A DNA stretch of 25,651 bases from a virus (IMGVR_UViG_2778261088_000004:1-25651), one strand, 5' to 3'; positions 2,062-22,397 are shown, numbered from the stretch's first letter. The notes: a model not told the origin generated them from the sequence alone. Numbers and translations: made by a program.

Positions 2062-2568
2062 TTGAGTATTTTCAATAAACACGCACACCAGGAACGTCCG
2101 TATATCGTCATAGTTGATATTGATGGAACAATATCAGAGGCAACTGAAGACAGACTGCATTTGCTTCCGCCACCAGGTAAAGGTGCATTAACAAAGGACT
2201 GGAACGAGTTTAATCTCGCCTGTGACACTGATACTCCCATAACTCCAGTTATTGATATTGTGCGCCAGTTATTTAACGTTTACACGGTCTGGTTTGTAAC
2301 CGGGCGCTGTGAGATCGCAAGGGATAAAACACGAGCCTGGCTGCGGAAGTACGTAACAAACGGGGCTGAGCCTTTGCTATCTATGCGTCCTGCCACCGAT
2401 GACAGAAATGACGGCCCAGCAAAGATTGATCTCCTTAAGAAAATTGGTCTAAGTAAAATCGCGTTCGCGCTGGAAGATAAGATTGAAGTGGCGCGTGTTT
2501 TCAGGAGGCACGGCGTGCTTACGTTAATGGTCAGGGAGTATGAAAACGCGCTTCTCCATCAACAATAA
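2062..2568 (+). CDS. HAD-superfamily phosphatase-like protein (168 aa)
   Basis: TTG start 4 nt after GAGGAGG; N-terminal VIVDIDGTI (HAD motif I, DxDG) and FVTGR (motif II); family assignment is by motif only. Confidence 0.55.
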   Translation: MSIFNKHAHQERPYIVIVDIDGTISEATEDRLHLLPPPGKGALTKDWNEFNLACDTDTPITPVIDIVRQLFNVYTVWFVTGRCEIARDKTRAWLRKYVTNGAEPLLSMRPATDDRNDGPAKIDLLKKIGLSKIAFALEDKIEVARVFRRHGVLTLMVREYENALLHQQ

Positions 2569-2584
2569 TTGCTCTAATAAATAT
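2568..2584 (+). promoter_or_regulatory. C1 operator (ATTGCTCTAATAAATAT)
   Basis: Near-perfect match to the C1 operator consensus, overlapping the stop codon of the HAD-like gene and upstream of the long operon starting at 2763. Confidence 0.6.
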
Positions 2585-2762: not shown

Positions 2763-3368
2763 ATGAAAGGCGAAGTGAAAGAGCGCGGCATGATTTTTAA
2801 CGATGAGATGGTCCGGGCAATTCTTGGCGGGAATAAAACACAGACTCGCAGGATTGTTGAAGAAAAATTCTATGGACGGGCAGTGGCCGCAGAGTTGCTT
2901 GCCAAGCATTGTCCATATGGTCAACCGGGCGATCGTATTTGGGTTCGCGAAACCTACCGGGTACATGGCAAAGCGACGGACGTCGCAACGCTGGTTTATC
3001 GCGCAAGCGTGCGTAACTCCTGGACAGAACAAACGCACCGGGTTCCGGTCGAGGTTTGTAATAAACCAGTATCAGAAAAGTGGACGCCATCAATTCACAT
3101 GCCGCGCTGGGCATCGCGCATTCTTCTGGAAATTACCAACGTGCGCGTTGAGCGGTTGAACGATATCAGCGAATGCGATGCAAGGGATGAGGGCGTTCCG
3201 CCTGCTGGAAGTTTGCTTCCTGATCACCCGGGAACATTCCTTACTCCCAAGGGGGATTTCGCAATGGCCAAGGTTGCGTTCCAGCGCCTGTGGGAATCCA
3301 TCTACGGCGAAGAAAGCTGGAGTGCTAATCCCTGGGTTTGGGTAATCGAGTTTGAGCGTATTCAGTAG
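2763..3368 (+). CDS. ASCH-domain-like protein (201 aa)
   Basis: ATG after GGGGGA; N-terminal FNDEMVRAILGGNKTQTRR resembles the ASCH GxKxxxxR signature. Confidence 0.55.
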   Translation: MKGEVKERGMIFNDEMVRAILGGNKTQTRRIVEEKFYGRAVAAELLAKHCPYGQPGDRIWVRETYRVHGKATDVATLVYRASVRNSWTEQTHRVPVEVCNKPVSEKWTPSIHMPRWASRILLEITNVRVERLNDISECDARDEGVPPAGSLLPDHPGTFLTPKGDFAMAKVAFQRLWESIYGEESWSANPWVWVIEFERIQ

Positions 3369-3377
3369 GGCGAGCGT

Positions 3378-3599
3378 ATGCAATCAGTTATTTGTGAGGA
3401 AGTCGGCCTGAATAAAGCATCCCCAGCAGAGTTAAGAGCAAGTCTCGAAATGGCGCATAGCCTTGCTCAAATTGGTGTCAGGTTTGTACCAATTCCAGTT
3501 GAAACAGATGAAGAATTTCACAGGTTAGCGGCATCGGCAGCACAAAAGCTGGAAATCATGGCAGCGAAAGTAGAGAAAGCTGAAGGAGCGACAAAATGA
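3378..3599 (+). CDS. Hypothetical protein (73 aa)
   Basis: ORF track; its stop overlaps the next start (ATGA). Confidence 0.45.
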   Translation: MQSVICEEVGLNKASPAELRASLEMAHSLAQIGVRFVPIPVETDEEFHRLAASAAQKLEIMAAKVEKAEGATK

Positions 3600-3811
3600 G
3601 CAAGCCAACCGACGAAGAAATAGTTCGGGTGTTGGAAGAACACGGGCGCTGTATGACTTACGTCGTGACCAACTGGCTTAGGGATAAATATCGCACACTC
3701 AAAACGGCATACGTTTTGCGTCGTCTAAAGAAACTGGAGTTCGACGGGAAAGTAAAGCGCGTTAACAGTTCTTATATAAGACAAATTTGCTGGGAGGCAT
3801 CCAGTGAATAA
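3596..3811 (+). CDS. Hypothetical small protein (71 aa), possibly DNA-binding
   Basis: ATG overlaps the upstream stop; basic, helix-rich sequence; function is a guess. Confidence 0.45.
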   Translation: MSKPTDEEIVRVLEEHGRCMTYVVTNWLRDKYRTLKTAYVLRRLKKLEFDGKVKRVNSSYIRQICWEASSE

Positions 3812-4448
3812 CCGCTTTTACATGATGTGCTTGCGTGAAACTGTGGGTAATAACGCCTCATTCCATTGCCATAACGGCAATGGTTACAGTTCTGATATCG
3901 ATCGCGCTCATGTTTACACGCTGGAAGCAGCCCAAAAAGCCTGGAATTGTGGACGAGATATCGATCAGCCTGTTTGCGCTGATAGCGTGGATGCAATGGC
4001 TGTGTGGCACGTTGATTGCCAGTACATCCCTACAGAAAGCCTGATTGAGTCAGATTGCACTGCGTATGTGGCCTACAAAAAAGGTAGCTGGAACGGCAAC
4101 GATGTTTACTGGCTTCAACACGGTGGATTGCCAACAGATGACTTCAGTAAAGCGACCATCTTTAGCGTCGCCAACAAAAACGAACCAGGAATAGTTTGGT
4201 TGCCATTTTCCATTGCTGATGCAGCAAAGCGCCGGACGTTCAATATCAATAACTTTAACCGCAGAACAATGGTTCAGGGCGCAGGTTTGGTCATGCCTGA
4301 CTGGTTGAAAAAGCAAAACAGAAGAAAGAAGTCGCGAAGCGGGAAGGTGCGTTGGAATTGTCCGCATTGCGGAAAAATAACCTGGCAGTACAGCCCATAT
4401 GATTTTGAAGGCTGTAGTGATTACAACTGTGAAGGATGGCGAGAATGA
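3804..4448 (+). CDS. Hypothetical protein (214 aa) with C-terminal Cys-rich zinc-ribbon-like motif
   Basis: GTG start after GGGAGG, overlapping the upstream stop; C-terminus NCPHCGKITW...GCSDYNCEGW. Confidence 0.55.
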   Translation: MNNRFYMMCLRETVGNNASFHCHNGNGYSSDIDRAHVYTLEAAQKAWNCGRDIDQPVCADSVDAMAVWHVDCQYIPTESLIESDCTAYVAYKKGSWNGNDVYWLQHGGLPTDDFSKATIFSVANKNEPGIVWLPFSIADAAKRRTFNINNFNRRTMVQGAGLVMPDWLKKQNRRKKSRSGKVRWNCPHCGKITWQYSPYDFEGCSDYNCEGWRE

Positions 4449-5311
4449 CAATTGACTATCAGGTACTGCGTGAGGCGGCAGAAAAGGCAACACCAGACGA
4501 ATGGGTCGCATTTATTTCGACGGATACTGGTACTTATGCGGTGCACACGCCCGGTGATGAACGATGTGAAGACGTTATCAAATGGACCGGCTTTGATGGA
4601 CAGAAAAATGCAGAGAACAACGCTCGTTATGTTGCCGCGTTCAACCCAAAGGTTACACTGGAGCTGCTTGGTGAAATTAAGCGCCTGGAGGACACAAATA
4701 TTGATGCTATGTGTCGAATTGCAGAGCTTGAGACTAATCTCGCGGCGCTGGCAGCGGAGAATGCGGCGCTGAAGGCCGGGGCTATGTATTTCTCATATGG
4801 CTCTGAATTTAGTTTCGAGTGTCACAAAACTGCTGAGGAGGCTATCGCTGCTGCTGAGGCTGCAATTGACGACTATAGAGGCGATGCTTGCGATGGATGG
4901 AGCGAAGAGGTCGAAAGCATTTGCTGGGGGGTAATTATTCAGCAGGCAACCAAGGTCGGTGAACGCAAGAAGAGGAAATGCGACAGAGTATCACCATGGA
5001 TTGAAAGAGTTTGTGATTATGAGCTTCGACCTAATGTCGAAACCCCAGCCACCGATGCTTTCCTGTCTGAAATTCGTGCGGAAGCACGCAACGAGGGGAT
5101 TAACTATACCGCCAGCCGTCTTGCTGCTGCGTTCAATCACGGATTTATCAATAAGTCTTTGCGTGAAGTTTTCGACGTTACACGCATGATTTTGTCAGCG
5201 AAAGAAGAGTTGGCTAATGAAGCGCATCCGATTGATGGCCTGTCTGGTGAATATGCGGAGAAATCCCTTGAAGAATGGGCGGAACAGATTCGCAAAGGAA
5301 GCAGCCAGTGA
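4436..5311 (+). CDS. Phage Ead/Ea22-like protein (291 aa), paralog 1 of 3
   Basis: Shares NYQ/DYQ-x-LREAAE, RIAELE and PATDAFL-x-E-x-RA modules with the next two large ORFs; central coiled coil; family name from memory. Confidence 0.6.
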   Translation: MARMTIDYQVLREAAEKATPDEWVAFISTDTGTYAVHTPGDERCEDVIKWTGFDGQKNAENNARYVAAFNPKVTLELLGEIKRLEDTNIDAMCRIAELETNLAALAAENAALKAGAMYFSYGSEFSFECHKTAEEAIAAAEAAIDDYRGDACDGWSEEVESICWGVIIQQATKVGERKKRKCDRVSPWIERVCDYELRPNVETPATDAFLSEIRAEARNEGINYTASRLAAAFNHGFINKSLREVFDVTRMILSAKEELANEAHPIDGLSGEYAEKSLEEWAEQIRKGSSQ

Positions 5312-5598
5312 ATATCGACACGACAATAACGATCGATACGCTCCTAAATACCGGTCTGGCACTTCTCGGTTGGCTTTACATCATGTCCCGCACATGGCGA
5401 TGGCTGGGTTCCATTTTCCTAAAACAGTGGAAAAAACGGCGCAAACAGGAACTACGCCAGAAGGCATTAGAAGCGTTCTATGACGCATTTGAGCTTAGCC
5501 GCATTGAACCAGGTACAACAGCCAGGATAGCGACAAAAGGCGACCTGATGATAGTGATGTTCCGACAGGAGAGAGCAGAGAAAGGGGAATCAGCATGA
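5308..5598 (+). CDS. Small membrane protein (about 97 aa from GTG start)
   Basis: GTG at 5308 overlaps the upstream TGA (GTGA); hydrophobic segment LLNTGLALLGWLYIM; the track's ATG at 5275 would overlap the upstream gene by 37 nt. Confidence 0.45.
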   Translation: MNIDTTITIDTLLNTGLALLGWLYIMSRTWRWLGSIFLKQWKKRRKQELRQKALEAFYDAFELSRIEPGTTARIATKGDLMIVMFRQERAEKGESA

Positions 5599-6329
5599 AA
5601 TTTTCCAAATTTTCTGAGTTGGTGAATCGTATTTTGTCCAACAACCACAGCCATCGTCGCGATATGGATGTAACAATCGTTGTTCATTCGCCTGGCAGCA
5701 TTGGTTCAACACCTTCAGTTGAGGTTCAGTCAATTCACGCTGGTTTTGATTGGGATTCCGGGAAAGTGCTTATTTTCCCATCACAGCCACTGACCACGCT
5801 AACACCAGAACAGATTACTGATATCACTGATAGTGTGCGCAAAGGTCAGTCTTGGCACGCATATCAGGAATACAAGAAGCATCAAGAGCAGTTGGAAAAA
5901 TTGTCGATTGAACTGGATGCCGCAAAACAGCGCATTGCAGAGCTGGAGGGTAATCGCACGGCGCTGGCAGTGGAGAATGAGCTGGCTCGTAAGGCAGTTC
6001 AGGCATTCTGCGATGTTGTTGGCGACAACACCGAGGTTATCGCTGAGGTGGTTGGGCGAGATGGCGTTCTGGTTATTTTGGAGGCCATGAAGGCAACAGG
6101 AAATATGCCAGCCACCGATGCTTTCCTGGCTGAAGTGCGGGCGCAGGGCGTGGATGCTGCTATAGAAGCTGCAAAAAATCTGGTGGCCCAAGAATATGAG
6201 TATAAGGATTTCAAAGCGGCGCAGAGTGATTGCTGTATGCACCCTGGTTCAGACCTGGTAGGGAAGGTTGAAATGACTGAGTGGTTAGTTGACTTTGCTG
6301 CCCAGCTTCGCAAAGGAGGCAACCAGTGA
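5595..6329 (+). CDS. Phage Ead/Ea22-like protein (244 aa), paralog 2
   Basis: Contains PATDAFLAEVRA and RIAELE modules and the same C-terminal QLRKGGNQ tail type as paralog 1. Confidence 0.6.
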   Translation: MKFSKFSELVNRILSNNHSHRRDMDVTIVVHSPGSIGSTPSVEVQSIHAGFDWDSGKVLIFPSQPLTTLTPEQITDITDSVRKGQSWHAYQEYKKHQEQLEKLSIELDAAKQRIAELEGNRTALAVENELARKAVQAFCDVVGDNTEVIAEVVGRDGVLVILEAMKATGNMPATDAFLAEVRAQGVDAAIEAAKNLVAQEYEYKDFKAAQSDCCMHPGSDLVGKVEMTEWLVDFAAQLRKGGNQ

Positions 6330-6844
6330 GCGAAATTAATTACCAGGCACTGCGTGAGGCGGCGGAACGTGCAATTCCAGCAATGGAACGCCTGTTAATG
6401 TTGCCAGCTGATGATGACTTGTTAAGTGAACAGGAACTTAAAGATTACGGTGTGGATATTGATGCGCTCAACGCCTTCAAATTTCTGACCGGACCAGAAA
6501 CCGTGCTGGCACTGCTGGATGAACGGGAAAGAAACCTGCAATACATCAAAAGCCGCGACCAGGAGAACGAGGATATTGCGCTAACGGTAGGGAAGCTGCG
6601 CGTTGAGCTTGAAGCAGCAAAATCAAAACTCAACGAGCAGCGTGAATATTACGAGGGAGTAATCGCGGATGGAAGTAAGCGCATAGCAGAACTGGAGGAG
6701 CGGGAAATACTGCTCCCGGAACGTAGCAGCATGCTTCATCGAACAGATTTTCACGATGATTACCAAACGGTAATGGCATACAAAGTTTCTGAAGTCATCG
6801 CTGCAATCCGCGCCGCTGGCATTCGCATCAAAGGAGGTGAGTAA
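6326..6844 (+). CDS. Phage Ead/Ea22-like protein (172 aa), paralog 3
   Basis: GTG start overlapping the upstream stop (GTGA); N-terminal NYQALREAAERAIP matches paralog 1; RIAELEE module. Confidence 0.55.
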   Translation: MSEINYQALREAAERAIPAMERLLMLPADDDLLSEQELKDYGVDIDALNAFKFLTGPETVLALLDERERNLQYIKSRDQENEDIALTVGKLRVELEAAKSKLNEQREYYEGVIADGSKRIAELEEREILLPERSSMLHRTDFHDDYQTVMAYKVSEVIAAIRAAGIRIKGGE

Positions 6845-7016
6845 TGCGTGTGGCATGTATCGGCTTGTTACCGTACCCGACTCGTTTTTGGGCTTCTGCG
6901 CTAATTGCAAAGCCACATGTCCTGATGGCTGACAACATAATCCCGGCACCAAAGCGCCGCCATACCGGTATTGCAGCGGCACGACGAGCAGCAAAGAGAC
7001 GCAGGAGAGCAAAGCG

Positions 7017-7193
7017 ATGAAAAACCGTAAGGCAAAACGACTTTTTTTACAGCGACCTGTGCGTGTGGTGGAGCTGGTTATTAGCAACCATAAGATAGCG
7101 GTACTCCATCCATTTGGTCAGGTGGCTTTTGCCGCGAAGCGTAAGCCTACTGCGTCACAGAACAGGCGGAAGAAAGGGTACGCAGTAAGATGA
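7017..7193 (+). CDS. Small basic protein (58 aa, MKNRKAKRLFLQRP...)
   Basis: ATG after AGGAGAGC; not in the ORF track (under 60 aa); its TGA overlaps the ATG of the next small ORF, which starts with the same MKNRKAK. Confidence 0.35.
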   Translation: MKNRKAKRLFLQRPVRVVELVISNHKIAVLHPFGQVAFAAKRKPTASQNRRKKGYAVR

Positions 7194-7378
7194 AAAACCG
7201 TAAAGCAAAGATTCTGTTAGTTCGTAGAAACGCTCCTGGCGTCTGGCAGTGGGTGAGACTCAGCAACCGACGGATGGGGTTGATGAAATATTACGGGATG
7301 ATGGATTGTGGTTTTTGCAAAAAGCCCAGCGCGGCGCAAAACCGCTGGAAAAACCATTTGCGCACTAAAGGAGAGTGA
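7190..7378 (+). CDS. Small basic Cys-containing protein (62 aa, MKNRKAKILLVRR...)
   Basis: ORF track; N-terminus duplicated from the upstream small ORF. Confidence 0.4.
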   Translation: MKNRKAKILLVRRNAPGVWQWVRLSNRRMGLMKYYGMMDCGFCKKPSAAQNRWKNHLRTKGE

Positions 7379-7380
7379 TA

Positions 7381-7895
7381 TGGCGTTAACACACCGCGAA
7401 CTCTGTCAGATTGCGTACAAGTTCCTTAAGCGCAACGGGTTCAAGGTTTGTTTTCATGACCGCTTTATAGCTGTAACCAGTACCGGAGAACAGCCAGATG
7501 CTATGGGGTTCAGAAATTCAGCATCATGCCTGATAGAGGCGAAGTGTTCTCGTGCTGATTTGTTGGCAGATAGAAAAAAGCGTTTTCGTAAAAATCCGTC
7601 TCTTGGAATGGGCGACTGGCGATTCTTTATTAGTGAGCCGGGAATTATTTCAATTGAGGATTTACCACCTGGCTGGGGATTACTTCACGTTGTTAACGGA
7701 AGAGTACGGAAAGTACATGGGTGGCCCAAGGGTAATTGCTGTTGGGGTAACCCTGAAGATAAACCTTTTATTGGGAATAAGCAGGTTGAATGCGATTACA
7801 TGTTATCTGCATTAAGGCGCATGGAGTTGAGAGGGCACCTTAATGAAATATATGACGGTGTAATTGTTAATAAGAAAGAAGGAAACGCGGCATGA
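7381..7895 (+). CDS. Putative PD-(D/E)xK-fold nuclease (171 aa)
   Basis: ATG at 7381 after AAAGGAGAG (the track start at 7308 lacks a ribosome-binding site); motif GEQPDAMGF followed 14 residues later by CLIEAKCSR. Confidence 0.55.
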
Positions 7896-8749
7896 TCACT
7901 ATTACCAAAGAGCGACTGCTGACAATCAAGCAGTGGCGCGAAACATACGGACCTGATAGCAACGTTGTACTGCCAGCAGAAGAAGCGGAAGAACTGGCGC
8001 GTATCGTGCTGGCATCGCTGGAAGCAGAGCCTGTTCTGTATCAGTCCTGCACTCGCCCCACCTGGAATAGCGGTGTTCCGTGGACGGAATGGAAAGAACG
8101 TAGTCGTGAGTGCTACGAAGACGATTTGCGTTTTACAGACACGCCTGACCATGCTGGTTGGATATACAAATGTCGAAAACTATATACCACTCCGCCAGCG
8201 CCGATAGCGTTAGAGGCCATTGAAAACGCAATTGAATACATTCGTAGTATCGCTTTTCACATCGATGAAGACGATTACCACGGCAAACATATTGCGTATT
8301 TCATGCGACAAGCATTGGCCTGGCTGGAAGGGCATTCATGCAGCGACGACAGACTGGGTAAAGCCGACAATCAACCAGTACGCGGCAACCAGGCTGCCGA
8401 ATCCAATCGCGGTAATGAGTGGACCGGCAATCCTGATATTGATAACGCAATCATCATGCTCGACCGCATAGATACGGCGGAAAGTTACGATGATGACCGT
8501 ATTGAGGCTGTTAAGGCTGTTTTGCGTAGACTGGCAGGCAACTCTCCGGTAACTCCGGATGGTTGGATAAGCTGTAGTGAGCGAATGCCCCCTCAAGATG
8601 ATTGGATTTTAATTTATTCAAAGCACGGCGAGTATATGGCAGGACAGGTACAAGGGGAATACGTGGAGTTGAGCGACGGCACTTTATCGTGGTTAGGGAA
8701 CGCCTTGTTCTGGATGCCGTTACCAGAACCGCCGCAGGAGGCGAAATGA
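7892..8749 (+). CDS. Phage protein (285 aa) with C-terminal DUF551-like domain
   Basis: ATGA overlap with the upstream gene; C-terminal GW...LIYS...WLGNALFWMPLPEPP resembles the phage DUF551 domain from memory. Confidence 0.55.
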   Translation: MITITKERLLTIKQWRETYGPDSNVVLPAEEAEELARIVLASLEAEPVLYQSCTRPTWNSGVPWTEWKERSRECYEDDLRFTDTPDHAGWIYKCRKLYTTPPAPIALEAIENAIEYIRSIAFHIDEDDYHGKHIAYFMRQALAWLEGHSCSDDRLGKADNQPVRGNQAAESNRGNEWTGNPDIDNAIIMLDRIDTAESYDDDRIEAVKAVLRRLAGNSPVTPDGWISCSERMPPQDDWILIYSKHGEYMAGQVQGEYVELSDGTLSWLGNALFWMPLPEPPQEAK

Positions 8750-15511: not shown

Positions 15512-15528
15512 ATTGCTCTAATGTATTG
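15512..15528 (+). promoter_or_regulatory. C1 operator (ATTGCTCTAATGTATTG) upstream of lpa
   Basis: Matches the C1 operator consensus; followed by a TATTAT -10-like hexamer; consistent with C1 control of lpa in P1. Confidence 0.55.
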
Positions 15529-19690: not shown

Positions 19691-19800
19691 TGATCCTCCT
19701 CCAGAATTGACATGGCCAACAACTCACAGCGGATTACACTGGGAGTTGTTGGCCACCATTATAGAAGGATCCAACGAAAATAATAGATTTATTAGTGCAT

Positions 19801-20010
19801 TTATTGTGAGTCTGGCTGGTTAGTGGCCATGAGATATTCGATTGTGTCAGTGAGATCATCCAGGTCGTCTTGGGTGATGCGGTACTCCTGATTGGATATC
19901 TTTGAGTAGTGTTCAGCAATGGCGCGGGCAGCGTCGGTTTCGGCGGGGTCTACAGATAAAGCGTTAGAGCAATGTCTAACGTCGTCGATGGTTGGTGGAA
20001 TGAAAGCCAT
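19801..20010 (-). CDS. coi: Coi, C1 inactivator (69 aa)
   Basis: 69-aa ORF immediately upstream of c1 on the same strand, downstream of Op99-type operators; matches P1 coi in size and position. Confidence 0.7.
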   Translation of the reverse strand: MAFIPPTIDDVRHCSNALSVDPAETDAARAIAEHYSKISNQEYRITQDDLDDLTDTIEYLMATNQPDSQ

Positions 20011-20248: not shown

Positions 20249-20265
20249 TAATTTATTAGAGCAAT
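20249..20265 (-). promoter_or_regulatory. C1 operator (Op99-type), inverted orientation
   Basis: TAATTTATTAGAGCAAT is the reverse complement of ATTGCTCTAATAAATTA. Confidence 0.6.
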
Positions 20266-20331: not shown

Positions 20332-20348
20332 ATTGCTCTAATAATTCT
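20332..20348 (+). promoter_or_regulatory. C1 operator (Op99-type) ATTGCTCTAATAATTCT
   Basis: Consensus match, 44 bp before loxP. Confidence 0.6.
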
Positions 20349-21892: not shown

Positions 21893-21909
21893 ATTGCTCT
21901 AATTATTTG
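21893..21909 (+). promoter_or_regulatory. C1 operator-like site (ATTGCTCTAATTATTTG) between cre and cra
   Basis: Consensus match. Confidence 0.5.
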
Positions 21910-22367: not shown

Positions 22368-22397
22368 ATTGCTCTAATTGATTGCTATAATTGAGCC
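22368..22397 (+). promoter_or_regulatory. Two overlapping C1 operators (ATTGCTCTAATTGATTG and ATTGCTATAATTGAGCC) with embedded TATAAT -10
   Basis: Tandem consensus matches; perfect TATAAT at 22386-22391; consistent with C1-repressed ref expression. Confidence 0.55.

Follow-up and report, generated by a model that had tools for sequence, protein, structure and literature searches.

Whether neighbouring genes that share short motifs are copies of one duplicated gene or mosaics assembled from parts of different origin is the question raised by a locus in the viral stretch IMGVR_UViG_2778261088_000004:1-25651 (hereafter the window, i.e., the whole stretch of 25,651 nucleotides (nt) that was analysed), which derives from a P1-like (Punavirus) phage-plasmid of E. 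coli. Three genes of this locus, named here g1, g2 and g3, had been presented in a preliminary description of the same DNA as tandem paralogs of an Ead/Ea22-like family, formed by recent duplication and module exchange. Our comparative analysis indicates that g1-g3 are probably adjacent members of a pool of genes built on an Ea22 scaffold, g1 and g2 being three-slot mosaics with exchange at short hinges, and that they are carried in a C1-repressed accessory operon of the P1-like element.

The three genes and the modules they share

All three open reading frames (ORFs) were confirmed on the plus strand at the positions given in the preliminary description, save for the start of g1. The longest ORF of g1 spans 4436-5311 (291 amino acids (aa) from ATG 4436). 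The start is most likely ATG 4445, because AAGGA lies 8 nt upstream of it, it overlaps (ATGA) the stop of ORF 3804-4448, and the RefSeq Prokaryotic Genome Annotation Pipeline (PGAP) calls the resulting 288-aa protein in relatives; the latter is also the database form (P0001). The genes and their modules are the following, SD denoting a Shine-Dalgarno sequence.

4445-5311, plus strand: g1, Ead/Ea22-like, 288 aa, arranged as N1, hinge 1, M0, hinge 2, C0, RKG tail
4450-4496, plus strand: N-terminal start module of g1 (IDYQVLREAAEKATP), common to g3 and lambda Ea22
4715-4763, plus strand: hinge 1 of g1 (RIAELETNLAALAAEN), end of a predicted long helix and recombination hotspot
4764-5044, plus strand: central cassette M0 of g1 (phrog_21696), which contains Cys and spans about 90 aa
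5045-5080, plus strand: hinge 2 of g1 (PATDAFLSEIRA), repeat D4
5285-5311, plus strand: tail of g1 (QIRKGSSQ-stop), with AAAGGA as putative SD and a GTGA stop/start overlap with the DUF4752 gene
5595-6329, plus strand: g2, Ea22-scaffold gene with a non-Ead N-terminal domain, 244 aa, arranged as N0, hinge 1, M3, hinge 2, C1, RKG tail
5931-5979, plus strand: hinge 1 of g2 (RIAELEGNRTALAVEN), repeat D1
5980-6107, plus strand: central cassette M3 of g2, the sole variable part of g2 among its close homologs
6108-6143, plus strand: hinge 2 of g2 (PATDAFLAEVRA), repeat D4
6303-6329, plus strand: tail of g2 (QLRKGGNQ-stop), with AAAGGAGG as putative SD and a GTGA overlap with the start of g3
6326-6844, plus strand: g3, lambda-Ea22-type, 172 aa, with Ead/Ea22 N segment, coiled coil and a short non-lambda C-terminal domain
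6683-6706, plus strand: RIAELEE coiled-coil motif of g3, the only similarity of g3 to g2
6809-6846, plus strand: tail of g3 (AGIRIKGGE-stop), with AAAGGAGGT as putative SD, followed by TAATG with the start of ORF 6844-7020

Pairwise blastn bore out that modules are shared in different combinations, and all g1/g2 and g1/g3 matches were colinear. Between g1 and g2, hinge 1 (RIAELE..ALAAEN, repeat D1) is 86% identical over 49 nt (4715-4763 versus 5931-5979, E 3e-8), hinge 2 (PATDAFL, D4) 89% over 36 nt with a 21-nt exact core (5045-5080 versus 6108-6143, E 8e-9), and the RKGxxQ tail (D10) 89% over 27 nt (5285-5311 versus 6303-6329, E 5e-4). The start module INYQALREAAE (D2) joins g1 to g3 with 79% identity over 47 nt (4450-4496 versus 6334-6380, E 9e-5); BLASTP found 11/15 of its residues identical to g3 and 11/18 to lambda Ea22. 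With DNA identities of 79-89%, the modules are indeed shared, but to call them nearly identical was an overstatement. Outside these 27-49 nt modules no DNA similarity among g1, g2 and g3 was detectable by pairwise blastn, and the longest exact match among the window copies is 21 nt. The RIAELE motif does occur in all three genes, as had been described, but the resemblance is weak for g2 and g3 alone (21 nt at 90% in blastn-short, E 0.005).

Protein Smith-Waterman scores were compared with those of 1000 block shuffles keeping local composition. The g1/g2 and g1/g3 alignments both gave z=6.0, their scores being reached by 1/1000 and 0/1000 shuffles, respectively, and the g2/g3 alignment gave z=2.2 (36/1000). 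Profile comparison of g2 with g3 retrieved an 18-residue coiled-coil stretch only (hhalign probability 2.6%). Chance similarity is refuted for g1/g2 and g1/g3, whose motifs are more than coiled-coil composition, but remains an explanation for g2 and g3 when these two are compared directly.

Membership in the Ead/Ea22 family held for two of the genes. The Pfam model PF13935 (Ead_Ea22, gathering cutoff 27 bits) was passed by g1 with 69.3 bits (6e-19, aa 5-129) and by g3 with 127.1 bits over the full-length model (1e-36, aa 2-124), and g2 had no match to it even at E<=0.1. The N-terminal domain of g2 is phrog_6026 (aa 1-113); some g2-like variants of 244-246 aa with another central cassette do carry PF13935, and phrog_368 is matched by all three proteins (by g2 at 2e-75). 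Judged by these profiles, g2 is best classed as a scaffold relative and not as a member of PF13935. Compared with lambda Ea22, g3 is 63% identical over aa 1-128 (E 2e-47) and then diverges, identity resuming only in the last residues ..AGIRIKG(G)E; g1 shares only 18 N-terminal residues with it (E 3e-4), and g2 has no homology to it (E 0.049). The N-terminal domain common to g1 and g3 comprises about 80 residues (hhalign E 1e-4), and between g1 and g2 the C modules can still be aligned, though distantly (28% over 89 aa, E 9e-5). The relationship is a chain, in which g3 is tied to g1 by the N domain and g1 to g2 by the hinges, the distant C module and the tail. Full-length homology of all three genes was rejected, and the term paralogs could not be sustained for a set in which g2 has a phrog_6026 N domain and only the 18-residue coiled-coil link to g3.

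No PDB sequence match to the lambda-type C-terminal domain (CTD) was obtained for g1, g2 or g3, and the alignment of g3 with lambda Ea22 ends at residue 128. Ea22 variants of Shiga toxin (Stx) phages likewise have no lambda-type CTD (PMC10834534). The CTD region of g3 (6623-6808) is the rarest part of the region, missing from the closest P1-like plasmids (99.4% identical elsewhere) and matched at 96-98% by P7 Upf88.3 and Stx2c phages. The g1 protein is 100% identical to P0001, an 'ead/Ea22-like family protein' present on at least 1000 contigs, and g2 is identical to P0121, a 'hypothetical protein'.

Exchange of modules across related loci

The comparison covered 173 related loci (14 annotated and 159 from IMG/VR), retrieved with g1 and g2 as queries, and 240 database proteins. 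Pieces of the 2.6-kb region were found in 581 plasmids, 21 of them with at least 80% coverage, and in 453 phage records, none with such coverage. Among 5426 complete E. coli genomes, 2833 contain parts of it, for the most part within chromosomal prophages; 30 genomes have at least 80% of the arrangement and none has all of it. Each segment of g1, g2 and g3 alone has copies of 95-99% identity in unrelated phages.

For the mapping of breakpoints, segments of at least 90% identity were used and distinct endpoint coordinates were counted once. Segment ends pile up at 3793, 4450-4481, 4760-4777, 5030-5045, 5290-5315, 5570-5595, 5970-5979, 6100-6108, 6290-6345, 6494-6507, 6619-6622, 6680-6709 and 6800-6845. 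At hinge 1, 22 segments end at 4760-4779 in g1 and 28 at 5970-5979 in g2; at hinge 2, 38 segments start at 5030-5049 in g1 and 11 at 6100-6109 in g2. The internal breakpoints of g3 lie at 6494-6507, 6619-6622, 6689-6709 and 6808-6841, with both starts and ends of segments at its RIAELEE motif (6680-6709). With the modules fixed beforehand as the repeats within the window plus the previously described RIAELE motif in g3, 78 of 122 endpoints (64%) were located at most 12 nt from modules, which make up 15.3% of the region (binomial p=5e-34). When only the three-gene stretch was considered, the count was 77/114 against a coverage of 22.3% (p=9e-25). The clustering of endpoints on the modules is unambiguous.

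Individual relatives illustrate the pattern. Locus L007 matches the window at 3087-4773, 5038-5979 and 6105-6622 with different cassettes between; it breaks, like L009, at 5979 and 6105 on either side of M3, and M0 is absent or replaced in L007-L010. The match of P7 (L014) ends at 4481, within the start module of g1. In the Stx2c phage LC645408 (L010), positions 3134-3799 encode an intact 221-aa hybrid that follows g1 as far as 4773, continues with a short cassette and resumes with g2 at 6108, the joint being at PATDAFL; the DUF4752 gene and the g2 N domain are missing. This layout is what unequal exchange between the two copies of the hinge is expected to yield.

The proteins gave the same picture. 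P0091 has the g2 N domain fused to the g1 cassette and g1 C module; P0111, P0113, P0118 (on 262 contigs) and P0119 carry the g1 N domain, g2 cassette and g1 C module, and P0087 and P0088 the g1 N domain and cassette with the g2 C module. When g1 was aligned with 24 homologs (A1), the sole invariant columns were L102/A104/E105/N106, P201-L207/E209 and A279/R283/K284/G285, which correspond to ALAAEN, PATDAFL.E and A..RKG. Among close g2 homologs (alignment A2) only the central cassette varies, in 3 types, and its flanks are otherwise invariant. When 320 distinct two-hinge proteins were cut at the hinges and each slot was clustered, 8 N, 10 M and 11 C clusters were obtained in 52 observed combinations, g1 being (N1,M0,C0) and g2 (N0,M3,C1). 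The hybrids (N0,M0,C0), (N1,M3,C0) and (N1,M0,C1) were all observed: every single-slot hybrid between g1 and g2 modules exists in nature. Genes of the g1/g2 type have a three-slot scaffold, N-ALAAEN-M-PATDAFL-C-RKG, the slots of which hold unrelated or very divergent sequences. The module exchange proposed in the preliminary description is strongly supported by these hybrids, slot clusters and endpoints. In this biased sample, loci of about 8 kb contain one to four scaffold genes: 20 loci have one, 56 have two, 33 have three and 3 have four.

Conservation at the joints and competing explanations

The 21-nt PATDAFL hinge shows 91% pairwise identity over 53 distinct contexts, and its 45-nt flanks show 41% (upstream) and 59% (downstream). 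Codon homozygosity in the hinge is 0.75 versus 0.35 expected from the codon usage of the same genes, with CCA in 48, ACC in 51 and GCT in 51 of the 53 contexts. Such conservation of synonymous sites favours homology-guided exchange or homogenisation over a purely protein-level constraint, and selected domain-respecting joints may contribute to it.

The tails are conserved in their codons as well. RKG tails read CGN-AAA-GGA, with GGA in 87/87 distinct contexts; a GTGA/ATGA stop/start overlap is present in 104 of the 117 that have a downstream ORF, and 89 of those tails have an SD-like pentamer whose end lies 5-8 nt upstream of the start. The K/R-G-E tails, a motif called 'of unknown significance' in the literature (PMC7093339), read AAAGGAGAG or AAAGGAGGTGAG in 45/47 distinct cases. 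Their E is GAG in 47/47 (background 34%) and their G is GGA in 45/47 (background 24%), and a start codon is located within -5 to +6 nt of the stop in 79 of 89 K/R-G-E tails. In the window, g3 ends with IKGGE, and g1 and g2 end with the related RKG tails RKGSSQ and RKGGNQ; the AAAGGAG sites are at 5294-5300, 6312-6318 and 6830-6836, the synonymous alternatives being AAGGGCGAA and AAGGGCGA(A/G). The simplest reading of these codons is that the conserved C-terminal K-G(-E) represents the translated SD (AAAGGAG) of the coupled next gene, and that the gene junction doubles as an exchange point.

The stop of lambda ea22 carries GCTGGCATTCGCATCAAAGGAG.., the same junction as the tail of g3. In lambda (NC_001416, L174; 29840-29850), AAAGGAGAGTGAGATCGG is kept at this stop, with ATC where relatives have ATG. 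No coupled gene follows lambda ea22, and ea8.5, which has an SD of its own, begins some 190 nt downstream. The GE motif of lambda looks like a relic of lost coupling, because ATC replaces the ATG of the coupled gene.

In the explanation that we consider probable, a pool of Ea22-scaffold genes would circulate among enterobacterial temperate phages of the lambdoid, epsilon15-like and P1-like kinds, and homologous recombination in hinge islands of 15-50 nt would make new combinations of N, M and C modules. The exchange partners would be co-resident phages or prophages and not duplicates formed in place; as exact identity in the window is at most 21 nt, frequent in-place exchange between g1 and g2 is not expected. 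The encoded proteins would be oligomeric coiled-coil scaffolds showing exchangeable N- and C-terminal modules, produced after C1 derepression or infection, and they may tune the lysis-lysogeny outcome like Ea22 of lambda and Stx phages, via a host or phage partner.

Several points weigh against this mosaic-pool explanation. Random joints followed by survival of the in-frame, domain-respecting ones would also put breakpoints on conserved islands, and the hinge identity available in the window is short for efficient RecA-dependent exchange. The combination frequencies are biased because g1 and g2 served as retrieval queries, and the p-value of the endpoint test overstates the evidence because endpoints sharing a hotspot cannot be treated as independent. 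The AlphaFold2 models are poor, and the coiled-coil scaffold is drawn from the secondary-structure layout and the family literature. The function suggested for g1-g3 comes solely from homology to Ea22 of lambda and Stx phages, and its transfer from lambda is weak because the g1 and g2 C modules are unrelated to the lambda CTD and found no PDB matches.

A constraint at the protein level only, which is unlikely, would make the hinges functional or structural motifs, with non-homologous joints falling anywhere and selection keeping those at domain boundaries (Hendrix-type). The hinge motifs, invariant in their amino acids, can be proposed as a helix cap, an oligomerisation register or a partner-binding peptide; hinge 1 ends a long helix and hinge 2 starts a helix in the low-confidence AlphaFold2 models, and 36% of the endpoints fall outside the defined modules. 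Such a constraint does not explain why synonymous sites of the hinge are conserved beyond codon usage, nor the tails, where the constraint is clearly on DNA (GGA and GAG codons), and the endpoints cluster within few nucleotides and not merely between domains.

More doubtful is the idea that the DNA-conserved hinges and SD tails are evolved cassette-exchange sites of a phage 'polymorphic effector' system like CdiA/Rhs. If so, the tandem operon copies would be module reservoirs, and recombination between prophages and phage-plasmids residing together would quickly turn the scaffold towards different factors of the host or of rival phages. In polymorphic toxins, the VENN motif of CdiA and the PxxxxDPxGL motif of Rhs demarcate variable C-terminal modules. 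The analogy lies in a constant scaffold with a short invariant motif before variable C modules, to which tandem or orphan copies could donate modules. In contrast to these toxins, the g1-g3 region shows no sign of toxicity, secretion or immunity genes; searches of NCBIfam, PADLOC and Pfam returned no toxin, immunity or defence family, and what follows downstream is a DUF4752 gene and another scaffold gene, not an immunity gene paired with a toxic C-terminal domain. The variable slots of the scaffold, moreover, also include the N terminus and the central cassette. A weak match of g2 to PD-Lambda-4_A (E 0.0036), located in the coiled coil, was dismissed.

Recent tandem duplication of one gene in place, followed by divergence that left the shared motifs as remnants, is very improbable. 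It would suit the adjacency of the genes on the same strand, the colinear motifs and the distant alignment of the g1 and g2 C modules. It is contradicted by the lack of DNA similarity outside the 27-49 nt islands, the different families of the g1 and g2 N domains, the separate 95-99% identical copies of each segment in unrelated phages, the abundance of hybrids and alternative modules, and the gene numbers of relatives, reference P1 having none of the genes and P7 and RCS47 one. The claim of recent duplication had to be abandoned, as the similarity stops at the modules, no exact match exceeds 21 nt and the segments are individually found elsewhere. Chance resemblance of alanine/glutamate-rich coiled coils, which would fit the marginal g2/g3 scores and the commonness of RIAELE-like heptads in coiled coils (spurious PDB and Pfam matches), is scarcely credible for the set against the shuffle results for g1/g2 and g1/g3, colinear DNA matches with E values of 1e-8 to 1e-4, and motifs that form the only invariant columns over hundreds of homologs.

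Operon context and relation to known systems

The P1-like nature of the window, implied in the preliminary description, is borne out by the backbone genes around g1-g3, namely pmgS, pap, hot/humD/phd/doc, pacAB, c1 and cre. The stretch from pmgT to humD is variable region 8 of P1-like phage-plasmids (PMC9603915). Three further features of the locus bear on its expression.

2568-2584, plus strand: C1 repressor operator (ATTGCTCTAATAAATAT), immediately downstream of pap, differing from the C1 operator consensus at one position
3793-3811, plus strand: third junction-module copy (GGAGG-N6-GTGAATA), SD and GTG start of ORF 3804-4448, overlapping the stop of ORF 3596-3811
5308-5598, plus strand: DUF4752 gene between g1 and g2, 96 aa from GTG 5308, Pfam PF15944 at 2e-42

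The inferences on regulation rest on the GenBank annotations of P1 and P7. The operator at 2568-2584 has the same sequence and position as the annotated Op(hea) of P7 and is placed like OpmgT/Op88 of P1, which has predicted promoters in the P1 annotation; because of this identity and placement, the whole lambdoid-type accessory operon of about 8 kb appears to be under C1 control, and 2568-2584 is presumed to be the control site of the operon holding g1-g3. The window contains 9 C1-operator-like sites versus 0.11 expected, the others being located at 427-443, 476-492, 15512-15528, 19785-19801, 20249-20265, 20332-20348, 21893-21909 and 22368-22384. A scan revealed no convincing plus-strand terminator from 2640 to about 11000, and promoter-like sites were fewer than in shuffles; the lack of internal promoter or terminator signals is consistent with one long operon. 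The C1 operator upstream suggests that g1-g3 may be repressed in lysogeny and expressed on derepression.

The stop/start overlaps described for the C-termini are real, with GTGA at 5308-5311 and 6326-6329, the GTGs of which are used by PGAP in relatives as starts of the DUF4752 gene and g3. The start of g2 forms an ATGA overlap with the upstream gene, and that of ORF 6844-7020 sits in TAATG after g3. In relatives, the DUF4752 gene is a PGAP coding sequence of 291 nt with a 4-nt overlap at each end, which points to its translational coupling between g1 and g2. Given the overlapping or abutting stop and start codons and the SD in the tails, the region would therefore be a chain of translationally coupled genes. 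The junction at 3793-3811 belongs to repeat family D5 and is a mosaic breakpoint, with 23 high-identity segment starts in the bin 3790-3799; in the relatives L004, L006, L010 and L014 the match begins exactly at 3793. The N-terminal segment of the DUF4752 protein (LLNTGLALLGWLYIM) is hydrophobic, which suggests a membrane anchor.

Reference P1 carries at this locus only pmgT-pmgU-pmgV and no Ea22-like gene, so that copies of Ea22-type genes number 0 in P1, 1 in P7, 1 in RCS47 and 3 in the window. P7 DNA matches the window at 3793-4481 (98.5%) and 6689-6840 (96%), and RCS47 DNA at 6314-6598 (97.5%). By their family matches the inserted genes are of the lambdoid exo-xis/ea type. ORF 3378-3599, upstream of g1, is a DUF1382 gene of the lambda orf63 family, and the locus therefore has a lambdoid exo-xis-like cassette inside a P1-type operon. 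In lambda, orf63 is a pro-lytic gene of the exo-xis region. ORF 7892-8749 encodes a 285-aa 'EaA' protein with a C-terminal DUF551. DUF551 is the C-terminal part of Ea22 V2 of Stx phages and stands in ORF 7892-8749 as a separate gene without the Ead N-terminal domain; the PHROG 60 profile joins the Ead N-terminal part with DUF551.

Structure prediction with AlphaFold2 gave a mean predicted local distance difference test (pLDDT) score of 44 for g1 (alignment A1) and 49 for g2 (A2). Long helices were predicted at residues 68-121 of g1 and 87-142 of g2, and only residues ~90-130 of g2 reached a pLDDT of 67-78 in these overall poor models. The N domain of g1 is of the Stx type, with a predicted helix and three strands. 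Searches of PDB sequences with all three proteins returned only spurious coiled-coil matches.

Among known systems, the closest are lambda Ea22 and the Ea22 variants V1-V3 of Stx phages, from the exo-xis region. Lambda Ea22 is a tetrameric, pro-lysogenic protein in which an N segment and a coiled coil are combined with a variable CTD (PMC10834534, PMC7093339). Stx phages have mosaic ea22 genes, and a single genome can carry as many as three variants (PMC10834534, PMC7093339). The variants have a common N part and coiled coil and dissimilar CTDs, two or three of them can coexist in one genome, and V1 and V2 share a short 16-residue segment (PMC10834534). g3 is like lambda Ea22 in its N segment, coiled coil (63%) and ..AGIRIKG(G)E tail, g1 carries a Stx-type N domain, and a gene of the lambda orf63 family lies nearby. 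Unlike their lambda counterpart, g1-g3 are located on a P1-like phage-plasmid under putative C1 control and not in a lambdoid pL operon, none of them has the lambda CTD, g2 has another domain in place of the Ead N domain, and g1 and g2 end with RKGxxQ and a GTGA overlap instead of K/R-G-E. P7 Upf88.3 and RCS47 gp058 are single Ead/Ea22-like genes at the same place downstream of pap and the C1 operator (the 'hea' operon of P7), whereas the window has three such genes and DUF4752.

The islands at the segment edges recall the lambdoid linkers. According to the module theory of Susskind and Botstein, lambdoid phages reportedly exchange modules at conserved boundary 'linker' sequences, and such boundary sequences are said to have been noted in comparisons of HK97, HK022 and HK620. 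The modules described here are likewise short conserved DNA islands at segment edges, and SD plus start junctions are breakpoints. In contrast to the linkers, two islands of g1 and g2 are part of the coding frame and at the same time form invariant peptides; exchange at these in-frame hinges therefore yields chimeric proteins, not new gene orders.

Mosaicism of Ea22 and multiple variants per genome are already published, and the preliminary description was a correct observation of a known phenomenon, because proteins identical to g1 and g2 abound in databases and near-identical trios are annotated in P1-like plasmids. The locus is a clean, quantified example of intragenic mosaicism and reveals no new kind of system or function. 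Our analysis adds the hinge coordinates with the three-slot model, the conservation of synonymous sites in the hinge and the SD explanation of the C-terminus, which offers a simple account of the conserved K/R-G-E motif. The module borders so defined may guide the cutting of these proteins into domains, and P1-like phage-plasmids, lambdoid Stx phages and epsilon15-like phages would draw on one pool of Ea22-scaffold modules.

Downstream of g3, the ORFs 7017-7193 and 7190-7378 form a tandem of small basic genes (58 and 62 aa) with an ATGA overlap. Both proteins start with MKNRKAK, and the two ORFs share 21 nt at 95% identity. Relatives annotate the pair as hypothetical proteins, and its second member ends with ..RTKGE, the same K-G-E tail.

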